The notes below the pieces were generated by a model. It searched no databases. It was not told where the DNA came from and saw only the letters and a program-made list of their open reading frames with translations. From the IMG/VR virus record IMGVR_UViG_3300025277_000081, positions 1 through 32,349 of that record: a stretch of DNA of 32,349 nucleotides; one strand, 5' to 3'. Within the stretch, counting starts at the first letter, position 1. Each line of letters starts with the position of its first letter. This DNA comes from a virus (taxonomy: Duplodnaviria > Caudoviricetes). Positions 6,335 through 17,982 of this stretch are shown in pieces. Both the position numbers and the translations under genes were made by a program.

Positions 6335-6727
6335 CTACCTTCTCATGTTCGTCAAGTGTTTTCCAAACAGCTCTTCGAGTTCGTCTTTCTCAGGTTCCTC
6401 GATCAACGAGCCGAGCCCCGCCTCTTTTTGTTCATCTAATGTTCGGGTTTGAACTGATTCCGAAATTTTTTTTTCAACTAAGGGGGTAGTGGGGGAGGTA
6501 GGGGGTAAATTCTGCAGTGGGGAGTTCCTTGCCGACATCATGGTTCGCCAGCGTTTGGGTTGCATGGTTATCCAACCATCCTCTTCTAACTTCTTCACGA
6601 TTGCATGAACTGTACTCCGAGAAGAAACTCCGACCATCTCTGCTATTGCTTCCAAGGACGGACCACAGTGTTGTGTCTCCCAATAGGATTCTATCGCTTC
6701 CAATACCTTCAACTGTTTAGGAGTCAT
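6335..6727 (-). CDS. LexA-type winged-HTH DNA-binding protein lacking the peptidase domain
   Basis: MTPKQLKVLEAIESY....CGPSLEAIAEMVGVSSRSTVHAIVKKLEEDGWI matches the LexA N-terminal domain pattern; the C-terminus is low complexity, with no S24 autoprotease domain. Confidence 0.8.
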   Translation of the reverse strand: MTPKQLKVLEAIESYWETQHCGPSLEAIAEMVGVSSRSTVHAIVKKLEEDGWITMQPKRWRTMMSARNSPLQNLPPTSPTTPLVEKKISESVQTRTLDEQKEAGLGSLIEEPEKDELEELFGKHLTNMRR

Positions 6728-7131: not shown

Positions 7132-7587
7132 CTATGTTGCACTCCCTATAACTTTCTCTAGCTTCTCCTCAATCTCGCTCATTACTTCTTCTGGAGTTCT
7201 ATCCTTAGTGATGGTTTCGATCCTCTCTATAAAGAGTCCAACGTCTGAACTCTTCCCTAATAGTTCCAAGGCTCTAATTCTTGCACTCTCATTATTGTTC
7301 TTGTCCAAGGCTTCCTCTCTTAGTCTCTCCAAGACTAGGTGTCTTAAAGAGAGGGAGGAAGTTAGTGCATACTCCTCTTTACGCTTCAATAGTAACTTGT
7401 ATCTATGGGAAACCTTATGGTGGCTTTTTAACTTACTGGCTTCGCAGTGGATAGCGGAAGCTTTCATTCCCTTGGCATTGTAAGCAGTTCTATACGAGTC
7501 ACTTGCTGAACTCCCTTTGAGGAGTTCTTGTACAAATACTTCTTGTTTAGGTGTTAGTCCATGTATGTCTTTTACTTTGTTTGTCAT
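7132..7587 (-). CDS. terS: Terminase small subunit
   Basis: LTPKQEVFVQELLKG.SASDSYRTAY N-terminal HTH and ARIRALELLGK oligomerisation-type motif; upstream of terL on the same strand. Confidence 0.85.
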   Translation of the reverse strand: MTNKVKDIHGLTPKQEVFVQELLKGSSASDSYRTAYNAKGMKASAIHCEASKLKSHHKVSHRYKLLLKRKEEYALTSSLSLRHLVLERLREEALDKNNNESARIRALELLGKSSDVGLFIERIETITKDRTPEEVMSEIEEKLEKVIGSAT

Positions 7588-7679: not shown

Positions 7680-7707
7680 TTGCTCTTTGTTGTACAGATG
7701 ATATACT
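7680..7707 (+). promoter_or_regulatory. Candidate sigma70-type early promoter
   Basis: TTGCTC (7680-85), 16-nt spacer, TATACT (7702-07), with an extended -10 TGn; points into the structured leader and early operon. Confidence 0.55.
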
Positions 7708-8140
7708 GAATCCGAATTCAGAAAGACTGCTCCCCGAATCGGGGAATTCCAACGGACGGATAACGAGTCTAGGGTACTGAAGGAGGCAATCAAGAACGGG
7801 ATTGAGTGACCAACCCTCCGAAAGAGGAAAACCCAGTCGGACAAGGATGGCACCGACCACAAAAAAAGTGCCTTTCTGCTCCAAGTCGAGGAGTAACAGA
7901 GGAGCCAGAGCAAAAGCTTCCAAGGAAAGAAAAACAAGAGACAAACATTTTAGGTCAGTAAGCAAAAAGCCTACTCATTTAGAGAAAGACTTTAGTACAA
8001 GACGAGAGACACAATAAACGGAGTTAACGGTTCGGGTTAGCAGAAGTTACGAGACGGTTCAGAAAGGAAAGAGAGAGACTTTAGAGAGAGAAGCTTAGTA
8101 ACGGAAGGGGCAAGTCATTATGTAGGTGGCGAAGAAGAAG
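7706..8140 (+). ncRNA. Candidate structured non-coding RNA or long 5' leader
   Basis: No convincing gene; purine-rich + strand with many consecutive hairpins (see findings). Confidence 0.45.
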
Positions 8141-8205
8141 GCGACCTCTTCGGAGGTCGTTTCTTTATTGGTGCTGTTCGGCATCAATAAGGAAGCGAAA
8201 GCTTC
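8141..8205 (+). repeat. Three-hairpin intergenic element, copy 1
   Basis: GCGACCTC-TTCG-GAGGTCGT / TTCTTTATTGGTGC-TGTTCG-GCATCAATAAGGAA / GAAGC-GAAA-GCTTC. Confidence 0.9.
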
Positions 8206-8227
8206 AATGTATAACTAAGGAGAACCA

Positions 8228-8389
8228 ATGAAAGGAAAACATATAGCTAAAAAAATGGAAGCAAGTGCAACTATGAAAGGCTTTGCCCCAATAGTAGCGG
8301 AGATGCCTGTTGTTACTCGTAATGACTTGGAAGAGTTATTGCCTGATTATGTAGCAGGTGGAGACATAACAAAGTTATTTAATAACTAA
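8228..8389 (+). CDS. Hypothetical 53-aa early protein
   Basis: Hand-translated MKGKHIAKKMEASATMKGFAPIVAEMPVVTRNDLEELLPDYVAGGDITKLFNN*; strong RBS TAAGGAG. Confidence 0.7.
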   Translation: MKGKHIAKKMEASATMKGFAPIVAEMPVVTRNDLEELLPDYVAGGDITKLFNN

Positions 8390-8397
8390 GGAGAACT

Positions 8398-8913
8398 ATG
8401 GAAATAATTTATAACAAAGACAGTTTTGAAAATGCAATCGAGGTAAACAATTACCCTTGGGGTTATAGACTCAAAACTGATAGACGGTACTGGATCGAAA
8501 CCACTAAGAGAGGAGACAGACTTTGCTATCAGACTTTGAATCCAAAGACTGGTAAATGGTGCAAGGTCAAGAAGTCCACTTATAGCGGAATCATGTTGCT
8601 TTATTTTGACGAGAACAACCACGTTAAAACCTACGGTATAGATGTCGGTTGGTCAGATGCGAAAGCGGTACATAAATTCGGTAAGGTTGTTGACGTTGAG
8701 AAGTTAAGCAACGAGCAAAGAAAGAAAATGTGCGAAGCTAAAACGGTCAATCATATTAACAGTAAGATCGAAGTTAGCTTCACTAATGTAACTATGTTGA
8801 GCGAAGCGGAGAAGACTGTTCGCAAGGAAAAAAGCGAAGCGGAAAAAGCTAAGATTAATGCTTATGCAAATCATGTTTATAACAAGTGTCTAACAAAAAA
8901 TAATCTTAACTAA
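8398..8913 (+). CDS. Hypothetical early protein
   Basis: 171 aa, RBS TAAGGAG; YPWGYRLKT..RYWIE and QT.NPKTG.W.K.KKSTY motifs. Confidence 0.8.
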   Translation: MEIIYNKDSFENAIEVNNYPWGYRLKTDRRYWIETTKRGDRLCYQTLNPKTGKWCKVKKSTYSGIMLLYFDENNHVKTYGIDVGWSDAKAVHKFGKVVDVEKLSNEQRKKMCEAKTVNHINSKIEVSFTNVTMLSEAEKTVRKEKSEAEKAKINAYANHVYNKCLTKNNLN

Positions 8914-8922
8914 GGGGGATTT

Positions 8923-9177
8923 ATGAGAGACAGACTAGAAGAAGCTATGGAAGAATCAATGCAGAAGGGCATCAAGTTTAAACTTGAGGACGGAACTAAT
9001 ATCTCTATCCAACAGAACAGGTTTGTTTACTGTAATGCAGGAAAGAGTTGCGAGGTTGGAATTTGGAAGGACGGAGCAGAAGACAAATTGAAAGTTCTTG
9101 GTTGGGTTCCTCCAGAAAGGCTTGGATCACTTTTGATTAAAGTCGTGAACGGAGAAGAGATTGAAGGAACAGTCTAA
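8923..9177 (+). CDS. Hypothetical early protein
   Basis: 84 aa, RBS AAGGGGG. Confidence 0.7.
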   Translation: MRDRLEEAMEESMQKGIKFKLEDGTNISIQQNRFVYCNAGKSCEVGIWKDGAEDKLKVLGWVPPERLGSLLIKVVNGEEIEGTV

Positions 9178-9182
9178 AGGGA

Positions 9183-9248
9183 GCGACCTCTTCGGAGGTC
9201 GTTTCTTAATGGGTACTCACAAGGTATTCATTAAGAAGCGGAAGCTTC
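9183..9248 (+). repeat. Three-hairpin intergenic element, copy 2
   Basis: GCGACCTC-TTCG-GAGGTCGT / TTCTTAATGGGTAC-TCACAAG-GTATTCATTAAGAA / GAAGC-GGAA-GCTTC. Confidence 0.9.
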
Positions 9249-9271
9249 ATGTCTATAACCAAGGAGAAACT

Positions 9272-9412
9272 GTGAATAAAAAACAAAAAAGAATAAGATT
9301 GAAAAATCTTAACAAGCAAAGAAAATTTTACTTAGCTAAAAAGAGAGCAACGGTAAATGCTTTTATAAAAAATCTGAATACAGTATTTGATCCTACTCTA
9401 TTTGTAAAATAA
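9272..9412 (+). CDS. Hypothetical 46-aa basic protein
   Basis: GTG start after RBS AAGGAG; the ORF-track start at 9161 would run through repeat copy 2. Confidence 0.6.
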   Translation: MNKKQKRIRLKNLNKQRKFYLAKKRATVNAFIKNLNTVFDPTLFVK

Positions 9413-9419
9413 AAGCGGA

Positions 9420-9487
9420 GCGAACTCTTCGGAGTTCGTTTCTTTATTGGTTCTAATAATTGGGATCAATAAAGAAGCGGAAGCTTC
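9420..9487 (+). repeat. Three-hairpin intergenic element, copy 3
   Basis: GCGAACTC-TTCG-GAGTTCGT (C-G to A-T compensatory change) / TTCTTTATTGGTTCTA-ATAAT-TGGGATCAATAAAGAA / GAAGC-GGAA-GCTTC. Confidence 0.9.
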
Positions 9488-9508
9488 ATGGTTGTTGGAC
9501 ATTCATGT

Positions 9509-9522
9509 ATTGAACGTTCAAT
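9509..9522. promoter_or_regulatory. Palindromic operator-like site, copy 2
   Basis: ATTGAACGTTCAAT ending 27 nt upstream of the AAA ATPase start; flanks are in inverted orientation relative to copy 1. Confidence 0.7.
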
Positions 9523-9549
9523 GTTTATAATAGTATAGGAGCAGAAATT

Positions 9550-10551
9550 ATGCTTAGACCTAAAGAACTGGAGAGAACACTCAAGACAATAATTGAGTTG
9601 AATCAACCAGTATATATTGAAGGTGGAGCAGGTATCGGTAAGTCTGAAATCATAACCAAAGTAGGCAAGAGTCTTGGCTACAACGTTGTTGATGTCAGAG
9701 TATCTTTGCTTGATCCAGTTGACCTTCGTGGGGTGCCATCAGTGGAAGATGGTGTAACTAAATGGAACCCTCCTGTCTTTCTTCCAAGGGAAGAGGACGG
9801 AAAATCAATTCTCTTTTTAGACGAGTTGGTTCATGGTTCCCCAAGTGTGCAGAAGGCACTCTTTCAGTTGATCAAGGATAGAAAAATTGGAGAGTACACA
9901 ATGCCAAAAGATACTGTAATTATCGGTGCAGGTAACAGAGTAGCCGATAGAGCAGGTGCTAACCAAATGAATAGTGCGTTGGCTAACAGGTTCATTAACT
10001 TGGAATTAGAAGTTAATGAAAATGACTGGTACGAGTGGGCGATAACAGAAGGGAACATTGATCCCAGTGTTATTGCTTTCATAAGATACCGTCCCGAACT
10101 GTTATATGACTTTCCCGAAGACAAGAATGAAAAAGCTTGGGCGAGTCCTAGAACGTGGGAGTTTGTATCCAACATCATCAAGGCGAAACCCGAACAAGGA
10201 AGAATCGAGGAAGAGTTGATCAAGGGTACAGTAGGAGAAGGAGCAGGGATAGAATTCGTAGGCTTTATGAAGACTTCGAGGGAACTTCCCGACATTAAGG
10301 AAATCTTAAAGAAACCTAAGACTTATCCTATTGGCGACAATCCTGCGGTTAACTACGCAATTACTGGTGCGTTAGCAAACAGAGCGACTGCAAGTAATCT
10401 TGGAAACATTATCACTTTCGTTACGAGAGAAGAAATGAGTCAAGAGTTCGCAGTTATAACTATGAGAGATATCAGTATGTTATATCCTCAATTAACCAAG
10501 ACAAAAGAGTACATTAAATTCACGGAAGATTTTAAAAACTTAATGTCGTAA
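9550..10551 (+). CDS. MoxR-like AAA+ ATPase
   Basis: Walker A GGAGIGKS, DPVDLRGVP, Walker B LFLDE, sensor I GAGN, ALANRF (arginine finger), SPRTW. Confidence 0.9.
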   Translation: MLRPKELERTLKTIIELNQPVYIEGGAGIGKSEIITKVGKSLGYNVVDVRVSLLDPVDLRGVPSVEDGVTKWNPPVFLPREEDGKSILFLDELVHGSPSVQKALFQLIKDRKIGEYTMPKDTVIIGAGNRVADRAGANQMNSALANRFINLELEVNENDWYEWAITEGNIDPSVIAFIRYRPELLYDFPEDKNEKAWASPRTWEFVSNIIKAKPEQGRIEEELIKGTVGEGAGIEFVGFMKTSRELPDIKEILKKPKTYPIGDNPAVNYAITGALANRATASNLGNIITFVTREEMSQEFAVITMRDISMLYPQLTKTKEYIKFTEDFKNLMS

Positions 10552-10562
10552 TTGGAGAAGCT

Positions 10563-11462
10563 ATGAAACTTAATGAAAAAGCAGTTCTAGTGGCACCAGT
10601 TTTAAGGAAGTGGAACCCACGAAAAGTTGACAAGAGACTTGCTAGAGAAATGGCAGACAAGTACGGAGTCCATTCGGATATGGTCAGTGCTTCTAAGAGA
10701 CTGGTGGCTCTGAATGAAAAGTCTTTCTCAAATCTTCAAACCATTGATAAGAAAATTAGGAATCACTGTTTCTATTCAGTTGGTTTGGGATGCAAAGGAT
10801 TTTGTGTGCCTTTTGACGGTAAGGGGTGGCACCTATTACCGACAGAATTGCATGAAAAATTTGTTGCAAGGTTCAACGGTTACAAGGACGAGAGAGAAAG
10901 AGTTGTTAAGAGACTTCTTGGCGATTACGATTCTATTGTTAAGGAAGCCAAGGAATCTTTGAAAGATATGTTTGATCCTTCGGATTATCCTTCTAAAGAA
11001 GAGATTGCAGGTTTGTTTGAGTGTGACTACAGGCAAAAAGTTCTTAATGAAGAAGGCTATATCGGGAGTGAAGGAAATATAGCTTCTGATCCTAGATTTG
11101 GAGTGAGCGGTGCTGAAACTGCGGAGGTTCAAACCAGAGAGAGATCGGCTATTGAAATGGCAACAGAACAAGCTACCCTTAAAATGGGTGCGTTGCTTAC
11201 TCACTTAGCGGATTGCTTGAAGGAAGATAAAACTTTCAGAGACAATTCTTACAACAAGGTTGCGGAAGCAGTTGAAAGTTTTGAATCTTGGAACTTCAAC
11301 GGTAGCGAGGAACTTACGAAAGTGAGTACCATTCTTAAAGAAGCGATAGCAAATATAGACGGTGCATCTGATCTTAGAAAAGATAAAGATAAAGCGGATA
11401 AATTTGTTGAAGCTTCCGAAGAAGCGAATGCAATTTTAGATAATATGGAGGGGATTATATGA
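10563..11462 (+). CDS. Helical hypothetical protein of the AAA/VWA module
   Basis: 299 aa, RBS GGAG; stop overlaps the start of the VWA gene; MFDPSDYPS motif. Confidence 0.75.
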   Translation: MKLNEKAVLVAPVLRKWNPRKVDKRLAREMADKYGVHSDMVSASKRLVALNEKSFSNLQTIDKKIRNHCFYSVGLGCKGFCVPFDGKGWHLLPTELHEKFVARFNGYKDERERVVKRLLGDYDSIVKEAKESLKDMFDPSDYPSKEEIAGLFECDYRQKVLNEEGYIGSEGNIASDPRFGVSGAETAEVQTRERSAIEMATEQATLKMGALLTHLADCLKEDKTFRDNSYNKVAEAVESFESWNFNGSEELTKVSTILKEAIANIDGASDLRKDKDKADKFVEASEEANAILDNMEGII

Positions 11463-12799
11463 TCGAATCAAAAGCGACAGACATTATGTCTAAAGCTAGA
11501 ACCAGATTAGTGACTGGACATCCCTTCTTTGGGAACCAAGCTATGAAGTTGAAGCTGATTGAGGACGAGTCAGTAAATACTATGGCGACAGACGGTTATG
11601 TTATCCGTTTCAATCCCTCTTTTGTTGAAGGCGAGTTACTTGCTGATATCACTGGAGTTATTGCTCACGAAGTGATGCACGTTACTAACGGACATCACTT
11701 GAGGCAGGGAGACAGGGATCATACCGCTTGGAATTACGCTACGGATTTCGCTATCAACAGAGACTTAGTGAGGGGAGGGTTTACTCTTCCCGAAGGTGGG
11801 TTGATCAGTGACGAGTACGGAAACAAAAGTGCAGAGGAAATATACTCAATACTTTATGAAGAGTACGAACAAGCCAAAGAGGAAGCTTCTAATTCCGAGG
11901 GTTCAGACGAGTCCGAAGAGTCGGAAGACTCCGAAGGTTCGGGATCATCTTCGCAGGGTAAATCTGGCGAGGGAGACGGAGAGGAATCTGGCGAGGGAGA
12001 CGGAGAGGAATCTGGCGAATCTTCCTCGGAGGGTACTGGCTCAATCGAAGATTACTTCAAGGATAAATTTGGAGAACAGGCAGGAGAAGTGACTGCTCAA
12101 ACTAAGGAGGACGGAAAGAAATTAACTGAATCCGAAGTGAGAGAGAAGCTAGAAGAGTTACGAGTAGATGTTGTGCAATCAGAAATGAGAGCAAGAGCAA
12201 GGGGTTATGGATCGGGAGGTTCAGAACTTACTCGTGATCTTAAAGGCTATGTTGAAGACAAGATAAACTGGAGAGATAGATTATTAAATCTATGTCAAGA
12301 TGCCATAGCTTCTGATTTTACTTGGAACTATCCGAATAGAAGACACATAGCCGAAGGCTTATATCTTCCTAGTGAAGACAAGGATCAGCTTAATACTTTA
12401 GTTATTGGAGTGGATCAGTCTTCATCAGTACGAGACGAGGAAGTTTCCCTGTTTGAAGGTGCTATGAAAAATATAATAGGGCAAGTTGGGTTTGAAAAAA
12501 TCTACATCCTTTACTATACAGGCATACTTAAAGAGGTGGTTGAACTGGATGCAGGAGATAACTTCTCTATGAAGCCAACTAGGTACTACGGAGGTACTAA
12601 CTTTAACGTGGTTACTGATTGGATAGAGCAAGAAGGAATCATTCCTTCATGCTTGTTAATGCTGACAGACGGAGAGTGCAGGGTTCCTCTTGAACCTAGC
12701 TATCCTGTTGGGTGGTGCTTAACTCCTAACTACAATGACTATTATCTTCATGCTATGGGATTGGATAGGTATGGAGAAATAATCGAGTTGGAAATGTAG
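11459..12799 (+). CDS. HExxH metallopeptidase-like plus VWA-domain protein (DUF2201-like)
   Basis: TMATDG, AHEVMHV...HH.R, WNYATDFAIN; acidic Ser/Gly/Glu linker; MIDAS-like DQSSSV, GGTNF and LTDG. Confidence 0.88.
   Translation: MIESKATDIMSKARTRLVTGHPFFGNQAMKLKLIEDESVNTMATDGYVIRFNPSFVEGELLADITGVIAHEVMHVTNGHHLRQGDRDHTAWNYATDFAINRDLVRGGFTLPEGGLISDEYGNKSAEEIYSILYEEYEQAKEEASNSEGSDESEESEDSEGSGSSSQGKSGEGDGEESGEGDGEESGESSSEGTGSIEDYFKDKFGEQAGEVTAQTKEDGKKLTESEVREKLEELRVDVVQSEMRARARGYGSGGSELTRDLKGYVEDKINWRDRLLNLCQDAIASDFTWNYPNRRHIAEGLYLPSEDKDQLNTLVIGVDQSSSVRDEEVSLFEGAMKNIIGQVGFEKIYILYYTGILKEVVELDAGDNFSMKPTRYYGGTNFNVVTDWIEQEGIIPSCLLMLTDGECRVPLEPSYPVGWCLTPNYNDYYLHAMGLDRYGEIIELEM
11961..12018 (+). repeat. 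In-frame 24-bp tandem repeat (~2.4 copies)
   Basis: AATCTGGCGAGGGAGACGGAGAGG twice plus AATCTGGCGA, encoding SGEGDGEE repeats in the linker. Confidence 0.9.
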
Positions 12800-12867
12800 C
12801 ACGGCACGACACTGGGCATGTTTTTGGGGTAGTCGTTACGGATATTTGACGGCTATCCCAATTAAAC

Positions 12868-12881
12868 ATTGAACGTTCAAT
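12868..12881. promoter_or_regulatory. Palindromic operator-like site, copy 3
   Basis: TTAAAC-ATTGAACGTTCAAT-ATTTAA, intergenic, between two hairpins. Confidence 0.7.
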
Positions 12882-12925
12882 ATTTAACTAGATGACAAGT
12901 CATCTAAAATTTATAAGGAAACTAT

Positions 12926-13279
12926 ATGAAATATGATAAAGACTATAAGTATAAAGGCTACACTATCCGAAGAAGGAAAAGATTTGGAGAGTGGAAGTAT
13001 ATAGTTGTTGATCCGAATGGAGAATATGCAACCGAATATACGAATGGCAATACAAATATTCGCACCTTAGACTTAGCTAAGTGGAGAATTAATTATTTAA
13101 TTGAAGAAGAAGCGGAAGCTTCTTACGAATGTTCTGATAAGTATTTCTTAATCCAAGAATTTGAAACTGCGGAAGCTAGAGATAAAGCTTTGGATAAAGT
13201 AAGTGATGAAATAACTTGTTACTTTTCAGAAAATACTGGCGGTTATTACAACAGTGGTAAGTGGGTATTTGTTTGTTAA
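12926..13279 (+). CDS. Hypothetical early protein
   Basis: 117 aa, RBS TAAGGA; N-terminal YKGYTI motif common in small phage proteins. Confidence 0.75.
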   Translation: MKYDKDYKYKGYTIRRRKRFGEWKYIVVDPNGEYATEYTNGNTNIRTLDLAKWRINYLIEEEAEASYECSDKYFLIQEFETAEARDKALDKVSDEITCYFSENTGGYYNSGKWVFVC

Positions 13280-13286
13280 AAAGTAA

Positions 13287-13352
13287 GCGACCTCTTAGGA
13301 GGTCGTTTCTTTATAGGTATTCACAAGGTATCTATAAAGAAGCGGAGGCTTC
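13287..13352 (+). repeat. Three-hairpin intergenic element, copy 4
   Basis: GCGACCTC-TTAG-GAGGTCGT / TTCTTTATAGGTAT-TCACAAG-GTATCTATAAAGAA / GAAGC-GGAG-GCTTC. Confidence 0.9.
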
Positions 13353-13380
13353 ATGTGTATAACTACAATTAGGAGAACTA

Positions 13381-13656
13381 ATGATATTAGTTAGAATAAA
13401 TATAGAAGACGGAGACAAGACTTATAGTGAATATCAATATTATAAGAATTTTAATCTCGAAGACTATCAACAAGACGTAGGAAAAATAAATGATGAAACA
13501 ATTTTATCCGAGTTTTTTGGAGAAGAGTTTTCTGACGATGATCTTTATGAATCACATAGCTACGAGTATGGCGATACGGTTGTTCGTGTAGGTAAAGTTT
13601 CAACACTTAACCAAGAACAATTAGAGGTTTTTAAAGAACTGCGTATTCTTTATTAA
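13381..13656 (+). CDS. Hypothetical acidic protein
   Basis: 91 aa, RBS AGGAG; bounded by repeat copies 4 and 5. Confidence 0.75.
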   Translation: MILVRINIEDGDKTYSEYQYYKNFNLEDYQQDVGKINDETILSEFFGEEFSDDDLYESHSYEYGDTVVRVGKVSTLNQEQLEVFKELRILY

Positions 13657-13663
13657 AAAGTAA

Positions 13664-13728
13664 GCGACCTCTTAAGAGGTCGTTTCTTTATGGGTACTAT
13701 TCGGTATCCATAAAGAAGCGGAAGCTTC
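13664..13728 (+). repeat. Three-hairpin intergenic element, copy 5
   Basis: GCGACCTC-TTAA-GAGGTCGT / TTCTTTATGGGTAC-TATTCG-GTATCCATAAAGAA / GAAGC-GGAA-GCTTC. Confidence 0.9.
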
Positions 13729-13762
13729 ATGTGTTTAACGAGAACTTATAAGGAAAATTATT

Positions 13763-14182
13763 ATGGTTGATATAACGACAGATAGGTTTGAATCTAGGAA
13801 GGTTCGTGCCAAGGAGATTGAAGCGAAGGAAGAGAAAACTACGGAAGACTTATTATTCTTAGACTTTGTGGACTTGTTAGTAAGCATGGTTGATATCGCT
13901 AGAAATATGGAAAAATTTCTTTTGGATAATCCATATTCTGACTTCAATTCTTACTGTGGCTTTTTTCGGAACGAGTTTCTTCAATCTAAATCTATAACAA
14001 ATAGAATAACTGGAGAGAGTGTTCCATTTCTTACGGATCATGAAGAACGTCAATGCTATTCTCTAAAGCAAGGAAGAGTTCTTGAAGATGTTTTTAATAC
14101 TCTTCAAGATTCTATAAGAAAGGGCGAAGAATATAATCCAGTTGATGCTATTGAAGTAGCGGATATGTGGTACAACTCTTAA
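13763..14182 (+). CDS. Hypothetical protein
   Basis: 139 aa, RBS TAAGGA; bounded by repeat copies 5 and 6. Confidence 0.75.
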   Translation: MVDITTDRFESRKVRAKEIEAKEEKTTEDLLFLDFVDLLVSMVDIARNMEKFLLDNPYSDFNSYCGFFRNEFLQSKSITNRITGESVPFLTDHEERQCYSLKQGRVLEDVFNTLQDSIRKGEEYNPVDAIEVADMWYNS

Positions 14183-14188
14183 AAGTAA

Positions 14189-14251
14189 GCGACCTCTTCG
14201 GAGGTCGTTTCTTTATAGGTACTACGGTATCTATAAAGAAGCGGAAGCTTC
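14189..14251 (+). repeat. Three-hairpin intergenic element, copy 6
   Basis: GCGACCTC-TTCG-GAGGTCGT / TTCTTTATAGGTAC-TACG-GTATCTATAAAGAA / GAAGC-GGAA-GCTTC. Confidence 0.9.
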
Positions 14252-14276
14252 ATGTGTATAACTAAAAGGAACTAAT

Positions 14277-14444
14277 ATGAAATGTATTATTTGTAAAAAT
14301 CCTATCGAGGAAAAAAGAACTCCCGAAGGTAAAGTCTATTGGGACAGTGGTAACAATGCTGAACCAGTAGCAGAAGGTAGATGTTGTGATGTCTGTGATG
14401 CAGACATTGTTATCCCTACTAGATTTATGGGGGTGGCTAAATGA
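14277..14444 (+). CDS. Small putative zinc-binding protein (55 aa)
   Basis: Hand-translated MKCIICKNPIEEKRTPEGKVYWDSGNNAEPVAEGRCCDVCDADIVIPTRFMGVAK*; CxxC...GNNAEP...GRCCxxC; RBS AAGGA; ATGA overlap with the next gene. Confidence 0.8.
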   Translation: MKCIICKNPIEEKRTPEGKVYWDSGNNAEPVAEGRCCDVCDADIVIPTRFMGVAK

Positions 14445-14632
14445 AATTTTTAGTTGCGTATATAGTGTGTGGTATGAGTTCACTTTTCCTAACTCTCTAT
14501 GTGGGAAATGACCTCATTCAATACGGTTACTCTACTTATGGACACATTACGTTTCTGTCTCTCTTCTCTTTCCTAAGTGGATCATTCCTTTTCTTAGGAA
14601 TAGATAAGTATTGGGAGGTGTCTAGTGAGTAA
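14441..14632 (+). CDS. Small membrane protein with two predicted TM segments
   Basis: 63 aa with two hydrophobic stretches; translationally coupled on both sides. Confidence 0.65.
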   Translation: MKFLVAYIVCGMSSLFLTLYVGNDLIQYGYSTYGHITFLSLFSFLSGSFLFLGIDKYWEVSSE

Positions 14633-15707: not shown

Positions 15708-16760
15708 ATGAAACTTTATCAAAAGATAAAAGAGAAATTGTTATCGGCTCATTGGTTAGTAGTGAATGATCCAAGTAAGTTCGTAAATGAATTTATCCCT
15801 CCTCCCTATTTGGAGGAACACAATAAGAATCTTAATGACAATAATAAATTTTATTTGGATTCAAAAGAGGGACTTTCTATATTGAAATCAATATCACAAG
15901 AAATACAAAAAGCTAACAAATTTTATTTAGATTTTAATAACTCTAATGTAGCTGAAAATTTAACCCCAAAGGAAATGGAAACAGTTGCACAAGACATAAA
16001 GATATTTCTTCCTTATGAAAAAACATTTATTCAGTTTGAAGACGTAAACGTTGTGCATAATCTTTGTTTACGAGAAGCCAAAGACGTTCAAGCTAGTAGT
16101 ATCAAGAATAAATCCATATATAGAATTCTTAAAAAGTTTGGATTACAGGGAAGGTCGTTAAATAAAGATACTACCCTTTACTCAATGTTTCATTCAGTAT
16201 ATTTTAAGGATAATTTTCCCCATAAAGAATTTGTAAACAAAACCATACTTGATCCTAGTGTTTATCTGATAAACCCAGAGGGCGAGTATTGGCAAGAAAA
16301 AGGAAAGAGTGCCATTTTTGGTTGGGGAGTCTTAGACGAATCCGAACAATTTCACGGAGGAGGTTATCGAATAGGTGCTAGTAGTCCCTTCTTTGACGAC
16401 ATGGAACACAACACCTTAAGGATTTGGTTCCTCCTTAATCTATTACTTAGCTATCCTGCTTTGTCCAGTACCAAAACAATAAAAGGAAAAACAGGTGTCC
16501 ACATGGGCGGTACGCATGGGTACAAGTCTAGTCACTTGATAGGAAGACCTACTTGGGAGCATAAGGTATTGAAGCTTGATCTCTACGGTAGTGCTTCTGG
16601 TGGTCACAATGGTAATGGTTCTCCTAAAGCATTCCATTCAGTTAGAGGACATCTAAGAAGACTGGCTAAAGGAAATGTCACTTTCATTAAGCCACACTTT
16701 AGAGGAAGCAAAGAAGTAGGAACTGTAGAGAAAGAATACGCACTACAAAAAAAGAAGTGA
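15708..16760 (+). CDS. Hypothetical protein with basic His-rich C-terminal motif
   Basis: 350 aa, RBS GAGGG; LPYEKTFIQF and PKAFHSVRGHLRRL...TFIKPHFRG motifs recurrent in phage proteins of unknown function. Confidence 0.8.
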   Translation: MKLYQKIKEKLLSAHWLVVNDPSKFVNEFIPPPYLEEHNKNLNDNNKFYLDSKEGLSILKSISQEIQKANKFYLDFNNSNVAENLTPKEMETVAQDIKIFLPYEKTFIQFEDVNVVHNLCLREAKDVQASSIKNKSIYRILKKFGLQGRSLNKDTTLYSMFHSVYFKDNFPHKEFVNKTILDPSVYLINPEGEYWQEKGKSAIFGWGVLDESEQFHGGGYRIGASSPFFDDMEHNTLRIWFLLNLLLSYPALSSTKTIKGKTGVHMGGTHGYKSSHLIGRPTWEHKVLKLDLYGSASGGHNGNGSPKAFHSVRGHLRRLAKGNVTFIKPHFRGSKEVGTVEKEYALQKKK

Positions 16761-16777
16761 TGATAGTAGTAAAGAAG

Positions 16778-17077
16778 AAGAAACACCGAACCAAAACTGG
16801 TTCAAGTTTGCTGAACTGGTTTGGGTTTCTTGAGGGAAGAGGCATTTTAGGGGGTACTACTACCCCTCCTCCCCTAGAGATCGGCTCTCTATGGCTACGC
16901 ATTTAAGCCGAAAATCAAAAAAAGGAGTTGATTTTGCCCTTTGTTTACTTTGACGGTAAATAAAGGGGAACGTCAACGTTCCAATATAGACGAGATAAAA
17001 ATAAGGGTTACGAAGGAAAACACAACCGGGCGTTTTTACCGGGAACTAGATTATCCGTTACGGATATCTCGTCTATA
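16778..17077 (+). ncRNA. Candidate structured RNA or regulatory region
   Basis: At least seven inverted repeats in ~300 nt of intergenic DNA, including a perfect 13-bp long-range stem (16985-97 with 17065-77). Confidence 0.4.
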
Positions 17078-17089
17078 GAGCAGTTAAAC

Positions 17090-17103
17090 ATTGAACGTTC
17101 AAT
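17090..17103. promoter_or_regulatory. Palindromic operator-like site, copy 4
   Basis: GTTAAAC-ATTGAACGTTCAAT-ATTTAAC: a 28-bp palindrome with one mismatched pair. Confidence 0.7.
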
Positions 17104-17151
17104 ATTTAACTTTTTTTAACTCCGGGTAACACCGGGAATGACTGGAAAATT

Positions 17152-17982
17152 ATGAAAGAAATAACAGTAAAAGAAAACCAGATATGGACAAAACTTGCAG
17201 ACCATTATGGAGAGGTAGAAAATAAAATGCCTCAAAATAAACTCAAGGCTAGAGTCTATACAGTGGTTAATATCTTTAGGGATGAAATAGATACCATAGC
17301 AATCCTAAGAAACTTTAAAACTCAAGGAGTGAAAGCTATAGATGTAAGAGAAATGCTAGGCAATTCAAGTTGGAAATATCATCCAAACGCATCTGTTACT
17401 TGGAGACAAGTTGCAGATATTGAATGGGACGAGTCCTCTTATACTAGGGATAAACCCAAGAAGAAATCTAAACCCAAAAAGAAAGCCAAACCCAAGAAAG
17501 AGGTTAAGGTTAGTTTGGATATTGCCAAGACAGTAAAAGAGATTACTGGAAATAGAGATACCCAAATATCCAAGGCACTTAACGGTGCAGTTGAAAAAGC
17601 TGATAAGAAAAAGAGCAAGAAAATTCCCACTGATCAAGAATCATGGGAAAGATTTGCTTCATATATGTATGACGACTTGGGTACTTTCGGAGAAATCTTT
17701 AAAGACACCGAAGTTCTAAGTGATCCTAACTACAGGGGTAGGTGGATGAATGGCAGGTATGCTTTACAAGGTCAACAGTGTTTGGATATGTACCGAGACG
17801 AAGGAGTTACTATTCGTAGGATACTGTCAAAACAAATGGTAGAAACTTACGAAGGATCGGGTATTTGGAAGCCATTAAGTTATCAAGCCATAATTAAAAG
17901 ATTGTTCAAAGCTATCTGGAAACATGGTAAACCCGAAGAAAGGAAACTTTTATTTGGGGATTTATACAAGGGGGGAAAATGA
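17152..17982 (+). CDS. Hypothetical protein with Lys/Pro-rich linker
   Basis: 276-aa ORF, coupled to the next gene by ATGA overlap. Confidence 0.75.
   Translation: MKEITVKENQIWTKLADHYGEVENKMPQNKLKARVYTVVNIFRDEIDTIAILRNFKTQGVKAIDVREMLGNSSWKYHPNASVTWRQVADIEWDESSYTRDKPKKKSKPKKKAKPKKEVKVSLDIAKTVKEITGNRDTQISKALNGAVEKADKKKSKKIPTDQESWERFASYMYDDLGTFGEIFKDTEVLSDPNYRGRWMNGRYALQGQQCLDMYRDEGVTIRRILSKQMVETYEGSGIWKPLSYQAIIKRLFKAIWKHGKPEERKLLFGDLYKGGK

Follow-up and report, generated by a model that had tools for sequence, protein, structure and literature searches.

A repeated, covarying three-hairpin RNA element between early phage genes: a candidate cut-and-cap signal in slots that relatives fill with hammerhead-like motifs

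What is the role of a three-hairpin element that recurs six times between the early genes of the phage record IMGVR_UViG_3300025277_000081? We analyzed the window, i.e., the whole 32,349-nt stretch of this record, which is a partial phage genome (54% complete), together with related loci. The element emerges as a conserved, covarying RNA motif, and we hold it slightly more probable than its opposite that the motif acts as a cut-and-cap signal between early genes, with host RNase III as the most likely cutter. Each copy consists of hairpins H1, H2 and H3, in that order, and the six copies are:

8141 to 8205, plus strand: copy 1, at the ancestral position, with H1 at 8141-8160, extended H2 at 8158-8197 and H3 at 8192-8205; best-fitting predicted cuts between 8165 and 8166 and between 8191 and 8192
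9183 to 9248, plus strand: copy 2
9420 to 9487, plus strand: copy 3, at the junction that precedes the AAA ATPase gene and holds a type I hammerhead-like motif in the sister clade
13287 to 13352, plus strand: copy 4
13664 to 13728, plus strand: copy 5
14189 to 14251, plus strand: copy 6

The six positions had been listed in the initial annotation, and a 25-nt pattern matches exactly these in the window (0/100 shuffles). As had also been noted, copies 2-6 follow a stop codon (TAA, then 5, 7, 7, 7 and 6 nt, respectively) and a ribosome-binding site (RBS) lies downstream of all six; H3 and the start codon are separated by 22, 23, 62, 28, 34 and 25 nt in copies 1-6, the start behind copy 2 being a GTG at 9272. 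The H1 loops, the exchange of a C-G for an A-U pair in copy 3, the H2 variants and the H3 sequence likewise agree with the earlier description. The copies occupy five of the eight intergenic gaps longer than 40 nt between 8389 and 18645. On the plus strand they fold with z-scores of -5.5 to -7.6, and the minus-strand fold is approximately 10 kcal/mol weaker in the two of six copies folded on that strand.

A looser pattern scan of viral contigs returned 108 matches, of which 10 are true elements; the remainder were dropped as chance after folding. All 10 end a long non-coding region beside the small terminase (TerS) gene, homologous to window positions 7714-8140. Copy 1 is not free-standing and terminates a long conserved leader. 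With the TerS gene as the anchor, relatives were gathered as the best 80 of 176 viral and the best 80 of 173 metagenome loci (single loci are cited by labels such as L131). A profile finds the element in 14 close loci (TerS identity 83-100%) and 25 sister loci (68-75%), and does not find it in relatives with a TerS identity of 58% or below. Close loci with sufficient DNA carry two to six copies and sister loci one, the single sister-clade copy being confirmed on 3/3 whole records (80-96% complete). Many loci are near-duplicates, and the 61 parsed instances reduce to 35 distinct copies (one truncated match excluded). L041 (29.8 bits), picked by the same pattern in an unrelated context, was excluded from the counts. 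Cultured phages gave no DNA match to window 8000-14500 and, with the leader as query, chance matches only (E 2 or more); a search of HTVC027P and DSL-LC04 with model R1 gave no match, and a tRNA/tmRNA search found none.

Across the 35 copies, H1 is an 8-bp stem followed by a U-run (5-6 U in 8 nt, 35/35), extended H2 measures 16-19 bp (35/35) and contains a near-invariant GGU paired with A-Y-Y, and the H3 arms are invariant around a variable loop of 4-6 nt. Extended H2 is 99.8% paired and 7/18 of its pairs vary on both sides, as counted in 33 of the 35 distinct copies, with the two that carry long H2 insertions omitted from the alignment. In a tree-aware control on a hand-anchored alignment of all 35 copies, we counted 14 compensatory branch events in the variable parts of H1 and H2, where a re-pairing null gives a mean of 1.3 (maximum 9; 0/2000 as high). 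Paired positions hold G-U in 160 and A-C in 1 of 1085 cells, many of the G-U cells belonging to invariant columns. The H1 loops include UUCG, UACG, GUAA and GAAA. Taken together, the covariation of H1 and H2, the G-U excess, the strand bias and the UNCG/GNRA loops uphold the earlier proposal that plus-strand RNA structure is under selection. Its extension to all three helices stands for H1 and H2 and lacks covariation in H3 (0/5 pairs), because the H3 arms do not vary. The H2 loop tolerates an insertion of 35 nt; the A-rich insertion in the copy at L206 4796-4904 resembles a repeat at window 16760 and 23749. A closed three-way junction formed via the terminal GCUUC was considered and is disfavored, its junction strands being variable.

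The initial annotation had further suggested that extended H2 competes with the base of H1 and the arm of H3. In 2/35 copies the H1 5' base, the shared base and the H2 3' base change together, so that neither the H1 base pair nor the bottom pair of extended H2 is lost. This three-position change, which probably reflects one event only, fits both pairings and backs both folds, so that competing folds survive as a feature of the element. In the folding model, the three-hairpin form holds a mean share of 0.82 over the 35 copies and extended H2 a mean of 0.16.

These properties can be joined in one mechanism. Two purine words, at the 5' base of H1 and the 3' base of H2, would compete for a single pyrimidine word, and the second purine word could also close H3. 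In this scheme, extended H2, with its 16-19 bp, would be the substrate of a host double-stranded RNA (dsRNA) nuclease, most likely RNase III; after the cut, strand exchange would release two RNAs, the upstream one with H1 at its end and the downstream mRNA with H3 at its start. According to the predicted folds, the same RNA would thus be a long stem until it is cut and would cap both new ends by itself afterwards. The element would have arisen at a single junction between the leader and the first early gene, as in the sister clade, and would then have multiplied in the clade of the window, taking, in the order presumed here, junctions that relatives fill with hammerhead-like motifs. The copies, as repeats of approximately 70 bp, would likely double as crossover points at which small early genes are swapped.

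When extended H2 is cut in silico, the products are predicted to part, at +0.4 to +4.9 kcal/mol, versus -5.5 to -9.5 kcal/mol without H1 and H3; in either register, this predicted separation depends entirely on the ability of H1 and H3 to form. With the best register, the RNA downstream of the cut would start exactly at H3, with 0 unpaired 5' bases in 35/35 copies, and the upstream product would end at extended H1. Such a flush 5' hairpin would be useful because cutting by RNase III yields 5'-monophosphate ends, and these stimulate RNase E (parts of PMC3867540 and PMC7509114). All registers were scored with E. coli rules as given in parts of PMC1540722 and PMC3867540. One register has a proximal box of 4/4 in 32/35 copies and no distal box, and the other reaches a mean of 5.0 of 6 under relaxed E. 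coli rules. The distal box is presumed to lie at pairs 9-10. In the best register, A-U or U-A occupies, in 35/35 copies, the two positions where G-C is rejected by E. coli RNase III, while both neighboring positions accept G-C. No gene with an RNase III domain (PF00636) was found in any of five phage records, of which that of the window is 54% complete; the cutter would therefore be a host enzyme.

The slots themselves provide a second line of evidence. Using a custom-written scanner tuned over three rounds, we found hammerhead-like matches on the early sense strand in 18/18 sister loci, 15/15 loci of family B, 6/6 of family C and 1/1 of family D, with 0 antisense and 1 on the late side in approximately 535 kb (both strands counted). 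Eight loci of the close clade yielded two doubtful matches only, both inside the leader (L199 and L201, each with a 2-bp stem II); these and at least two family-B matches were judged spurious. At the ATPase junction, which is orthologous across clades, close-clade loci carry the element (5/5) and no hammerhead core (0/5), sister loci carry a type I hammerhead core (19/19) and no element (0/19), and among 12 family-B loci the core is intact in seven, degenerate in three and missing in two. Stem III of the sister hammerhead occurs in five mutually compensated versions. The predicted sister cut lies 60-62 nt before the ATG (six loci displayed), and H3 of copy 3 ends where that cut would lie, approximately 61 nt before the ATG, with homologous DNA beyond it:

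9488 to 9549, plus strand: spacer with a 14-nt palindrome (9509-9522) and an RBS, homologous to the DNA after the predicted sister-clade hammerhead cut

At the leader end, many family-B loci carry a type III motif 60-76 nt before the first start codon, the position of copy 1; L134, L139, L140 and L148 have no hammerhead motif there. Several hammerhead-like motifs come after a hairpin and U-run, the same layout as H1 with its U-run. Sub-threshold Rfam matches to type III hammerheads in distant relatives have E-values of 0.0011, 0.2, 0.0021, 0.83, 1.0 and 0.008. Because relatives place hammerhead-like motifs at the same junctions, the slot is a likely mRNA cut site; their presence in all other groups suggests that hammerheads preceded the element. 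Clustered phage hammerheads have been described, with cleavage demonstrated for three clusters (Perreault et al. 2011, PMC3088659, in part), and what self-cleaving ribozymes do between phage genes is described as an open question (PMC6765202, in part). Separately, the type I motifs of L122, L129, L220 and other sister loci contain a two-hairpin insertion in stem III, and the type III motifs of L131, L137, L142 and L154 have one extra base in the CUGA core and extras before GAAA; a similar core insertion was reported to be weakly active (PMC3088659, in part).

A number of observations weigh against the cut-and-cap interpretation. Extended H2 is the minority fold in the model, with a median share of 0.09. 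By relaxed rules, 26/35 copies reach at least 5/6 of the RNase III boxes, yet this fit is not significant because 21% of shuffled stems reach it too, and strict rules give a fit no better than the null. On the side that was scored, the helix measures 8-11 bp, against a reported minimum of 11 bp, and the alternative register leaves 9 bp below. Concerning the hammerheads, the scanner was tuned after the sequences had been seen, every Rfam type III match lies below the gathering score, Rfam called no hammerhead in six sister loci, position 9 of the core is U instead of A in 17/19 sister motifs, and the root is not fixed by the TerS tree. Processing at the element, which we consider likely, is argued from sequence and predicted folds, and termination would give nearly the same upstream end because of the U-run behind every H1. 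The initial proposal of a processing and stabilizing cassette thus holds in part: it gains from the hammerhead-like motifs in relatives' slots and from model products capped by H1 and H3, and falls short in the RNase III boxes, which fit no better than shuffled stems.

An alternative that we regard as unlikely is that H1 with its U-run is a leaky intrinsic terminator or attenuator that grades early expression, with H2 and H3 only tuning read-through or stability and no cut taking place. The 35 copies do have the features of a G+C-rich hairpin followed by a U-run, the position 5-7 nt behind stop codons is apt, and terminator-like calls were obtained on the plus strand for copies 1 and 3, along with calls on the minus strand for copies 1, 4, 5 and 6. 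However, strong covariation in H2 and an invariant H3 are found in a part of the RNA that is transcribed only beyond the point of termination; moreover, no promoter lies inside the copies from which transcription could restart, and the orthologous slot in relatives holds a predicted cutter. Termination at H1 could also act alongside cutting.

Since the element occupies hammerhead slots and has no Rfam match, and since new classes of ribozyme were found through searches of such contexts (PMC6765202, in part), it might instead be a new self-cleaving class that replaced the hammerheads, which we consider improbable. We give equally little credence to the fuller version, in which a self-processing RNA class from the 3' end of the leader spread through the early operon, displaced hammerheads and doubles as a cassette crossover point. 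No hammerhead core (CUGANGA and GAAA, three stems, an NUH site) was matched at any copy. Nearly all invariant bases are paired in one or the other of the two folds and the three loops vary in sequence and length, and for these reasons a catalytic core is not apparent. The need for a flush 5' hairpin would be greater after a cut that leaves a 5'-monophosphate (PMC7509114, in part), and context-picked candidates often failed to cleave (PMC6765202, in part). As the element has no conserved unpaired core, a dsRNA nuclease such as RNase III is the likelier cutter.

That the protein could be a nuclease other than RNase III, Mini-III or a phage-encoded enzyme, strikes us as distinctly improbable. The GGU/A-Y-Y of H2 resembles the AGGU/ACCU or AGGU/AUCU sites of Mini-III (PMC5141509, in part), but the base preceding GGU is G in 14/35 copies, and a phage-encoded enzyme is countered by the PF00636 result above (0/5 records).

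Gene cassettes between copies vary among close relatives, raising the question of whether the element operates on DNA. A 46-aa gene stands before copy 3 in the window and in the second cluster in L206, with the same upstream bases, a different H2 and a chimeric copy behind it. Among seven close loci, 42/66 pairwise alignment ends fall at copies, the pairs being non-independent; when the window alone is considered, 8/22 distinct ends fall at copies, which span 9% of the region. The copies therefore likely serve as crossover points for small early genes too, as far as alignments can tell. It seems to us very doubtful that they are mainly a DNA-level shuffling cassette like those of T4-type phages, with RNA structure incidental, a view which the differing cassettes, the moving 46-aa gene and the clustered alignment ends would favor. 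Against it, the sister clade has variable early genes although it retains just one copy, whose conserved structure is the same; both the strand bias and the UNCG/GNRA loops are signs of an RNA-level role, and no promoter lies within the element. Finally, a promoter of the N4 virion polymerase type, formed by single-stranded DNA as a hairpin with a 3-nt loop on the template strand, has next to no chance of being right: H3 is a 5-bp GAAGC/GCTTC hairpin with A residues upstream, but its loops of 4-6 nt are variable and never 3 nt, its orientation would yield antisense RNA, and none of the 42 window proteins scanned matched a polymerase.

On the cut-and-cap interpretation, the parent of the six copies would be the leader. 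The initial annotation was right about real copies and plus-strand RNA structure; the leader parent, the clade-limited multiplication and the cassette shuffling were absent from it. The region comprises:

7132 to 7587, minus strand: TerS gene, divergent from the leader (PHROGs phrog_51, E 4e-12)
7680 to 7707, plus strand: sigma-70-like promoter (TTGCTC, 16 nt, TATACT, with TG upstream of the -10; 8/12 consensus matches)
7714 to 8140, plus strand: conserved purine-rich non-coding leader with several covarying hairpins, its 5' end placed from the promoter

The promoter is predicted to start the leader and the early transcript, and relatives carry similar hexamers at the same place. The leader is approximately 430 nt long, with copy 1 at its 3' end. 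Five leader helices are 96.8% paired over 26 loci, with two-sided changes in 16/25 pairs; the controls are lenient because the helices were taken from the RNAalifold consensus of the same 26-locus alignment. Whole-leader folding z-scores are mixed, from -2.7 to +0.9 (four leaders, 12 shuffles each). In the close clade, window 7785-7876 contains a conserved CUGAAGGA word; a hammerhead scan of this word matched in L199 and L201 only, probably by chance. In four RNA runs from one study, covered as assembled contigs at depth 2-3, the leader is represented by four pieces of 139-180 nt, another piece spans 8144-8294, and the following 19.9 kb is represented by five pieces of 124-151 nt. These pieces indicate neither expression nor ends, because the runs were selected with the leader and may contain DNA. 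A second read start seemed to lie at 13667, but its piece matches the 8144 piece in length and depth; the two are most likely one record, and it was dropped.

The gap from TerS to the first gene measures roughly 640-790 nt in all relatives with sufficient DNA, apart from four longer values, of which that of L131 was checked and is caused by a missed open reading frame. The gap sequences fall into four families (40, 28, 7 and 2 loci) without cross-matches. The second leader family, of approximately 500 nt and 28 loci (L131, L133, L137, L139, L142 and L154 among them), is unrelated to the leader of the window and has no Rfam match in the loci scanned. The third and fourth comprise 7 and 2 loci (L238, L153, L243; L152, L237). 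The gap of L238 contains words that we take to be reminiscent of RNase P RNA; Rfam gave no RNase P match there.

The remaining gene content of the window is as follows:

minus strand: portal, large terminase, LexA-type DNA-binding protein and TerS genes
plus strand: small genes, then those for an AAA ATPase and a DUF2201 protein
8228 to 9412, plus strand: variable small-gene cassettes between copies 1-3 (53, 171, 84 and 46 aa)
9550 to 12799, plus strand: conserved block of an AAA ATPase, a 299-aa protein and a DUF2201 metallopeptidase/VWA protein
13381 to 14182, plus strand: two single-gene cassettes (91 and 139 aa), bounded by copies 4-6

The 91- and 139-aa cassettes are absent in all 14 related loci examined. 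By large terminase comparison, the nearest cultured phage is Pelagibacter phage HTVC027P (55% identity), and runs with sequence near-identical to the window are labelled marine metagenome. A host search identified none, a TerS search of genome contigs giving one distant match. The 14-nt palindrome has eight sites in the window (7107, 9509, 12868, 17090, 19296, 20535, 21901 and 25433; 0.11 expected), two of which come after a related long hairpin, and it precedes the ATPase gene in the sister clade too; the LexA-type protein at 6335-6727 may use it as its operator. One of these sites lies in the 391-nt intergenic stretch at 16760-17152, which also contains several hairpins. A 350-aa protein (15708-16760) resembles clusters with AcrVA2-like PF26125 in 20-78% of members (atlas score 0.97-0.98), an assignment that is a lead only.

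Processing signals between phage early genes are a known kind of system. What appears undescribed is the motif, its leader-end origin and the way it trades places with hammerheads at an orthologous junction. Rfam returned 0 matches in the window at E up to 1, in keeping with the earlier remark that the element belongs to no named RNA family, and in seven related loci nothing for element or leader, with one chance snoRNA match (E 0.91) outside the element. A literature search, with most subscription papers outside its coverage, found no description of the motif, and six short motifs are absent from the searchable supplement files of Fremin et al. (PMC10690425), its larger files not being covered. 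Within one phage family, an orthologous junction appears to have either a hammerhead or, in its place, an unrelated hairpin cassette that is probably cut by a protein, suggesting that selection keeps the cut and the capped ends, and the natural matched pairs allow testing of what is kept. At 65 nt, the element is also cheap to examine as a ribozyme candidate and might serve as a compact cut-and-cap part. The leader from which it stems is among four long conserved non-coding regions, unrelated to one another, that occupy the same position in this phage family.

Among known systems, the leader is comparable to the large phage non-coding RNAs ROOL and GOLLD in being long, conserved and structured-looking, and differs in that Rfam returned nothing for it up to an E-value of 1. 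In lambda sib/tI, a terminator overlaps an RNase III site and a hairpin shares sequence with a longer stem; sib cleavage removes the protective hairpin, whereas the cut predicted here keeps it. The PeSLs of T4-type phages are likewise short repeated intergenic stem-loop and RBS cassettes flanking exchanged small genes (PMC2839356 and PMC4122927, in part). Our element has the stem-loop with terminator features, the downstream RBS and variable genes exchanged at the repeat, but it is not a PeSL because it has no sigma-70 promoter inside (best 4-8 of 12 in five copies; a single 9 in the spacer downstream of copy 3); it further differs in its three helices and alternative folds, its descent from a leader RNA and the phage group. 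Clustered phage hammerheads (Rfam RF00008; PMC3088659, in part) share the slots and the proposed cutting of long transcripts into gene-sized mRNAs, whereas the element lacks the CUGANGA and GAAA core and appears to replace them. Closest in kind are the RNase III signals of the T7 early transcript, which has five such sites (PMC3867540 and PMC1540722, in part): both are intergenic stems in an early polycistronic RNA, cut by the host enzyme (a prediction here, with RNase III only a candidate), with hairpins as stability determinants. In contrast to the T7 signals, the stem of the element has no unpaired positions and stands between two competing hairpins, which by prediction would cap both products, and the copies of the element are near-identical repeats derived from the end of a leader.

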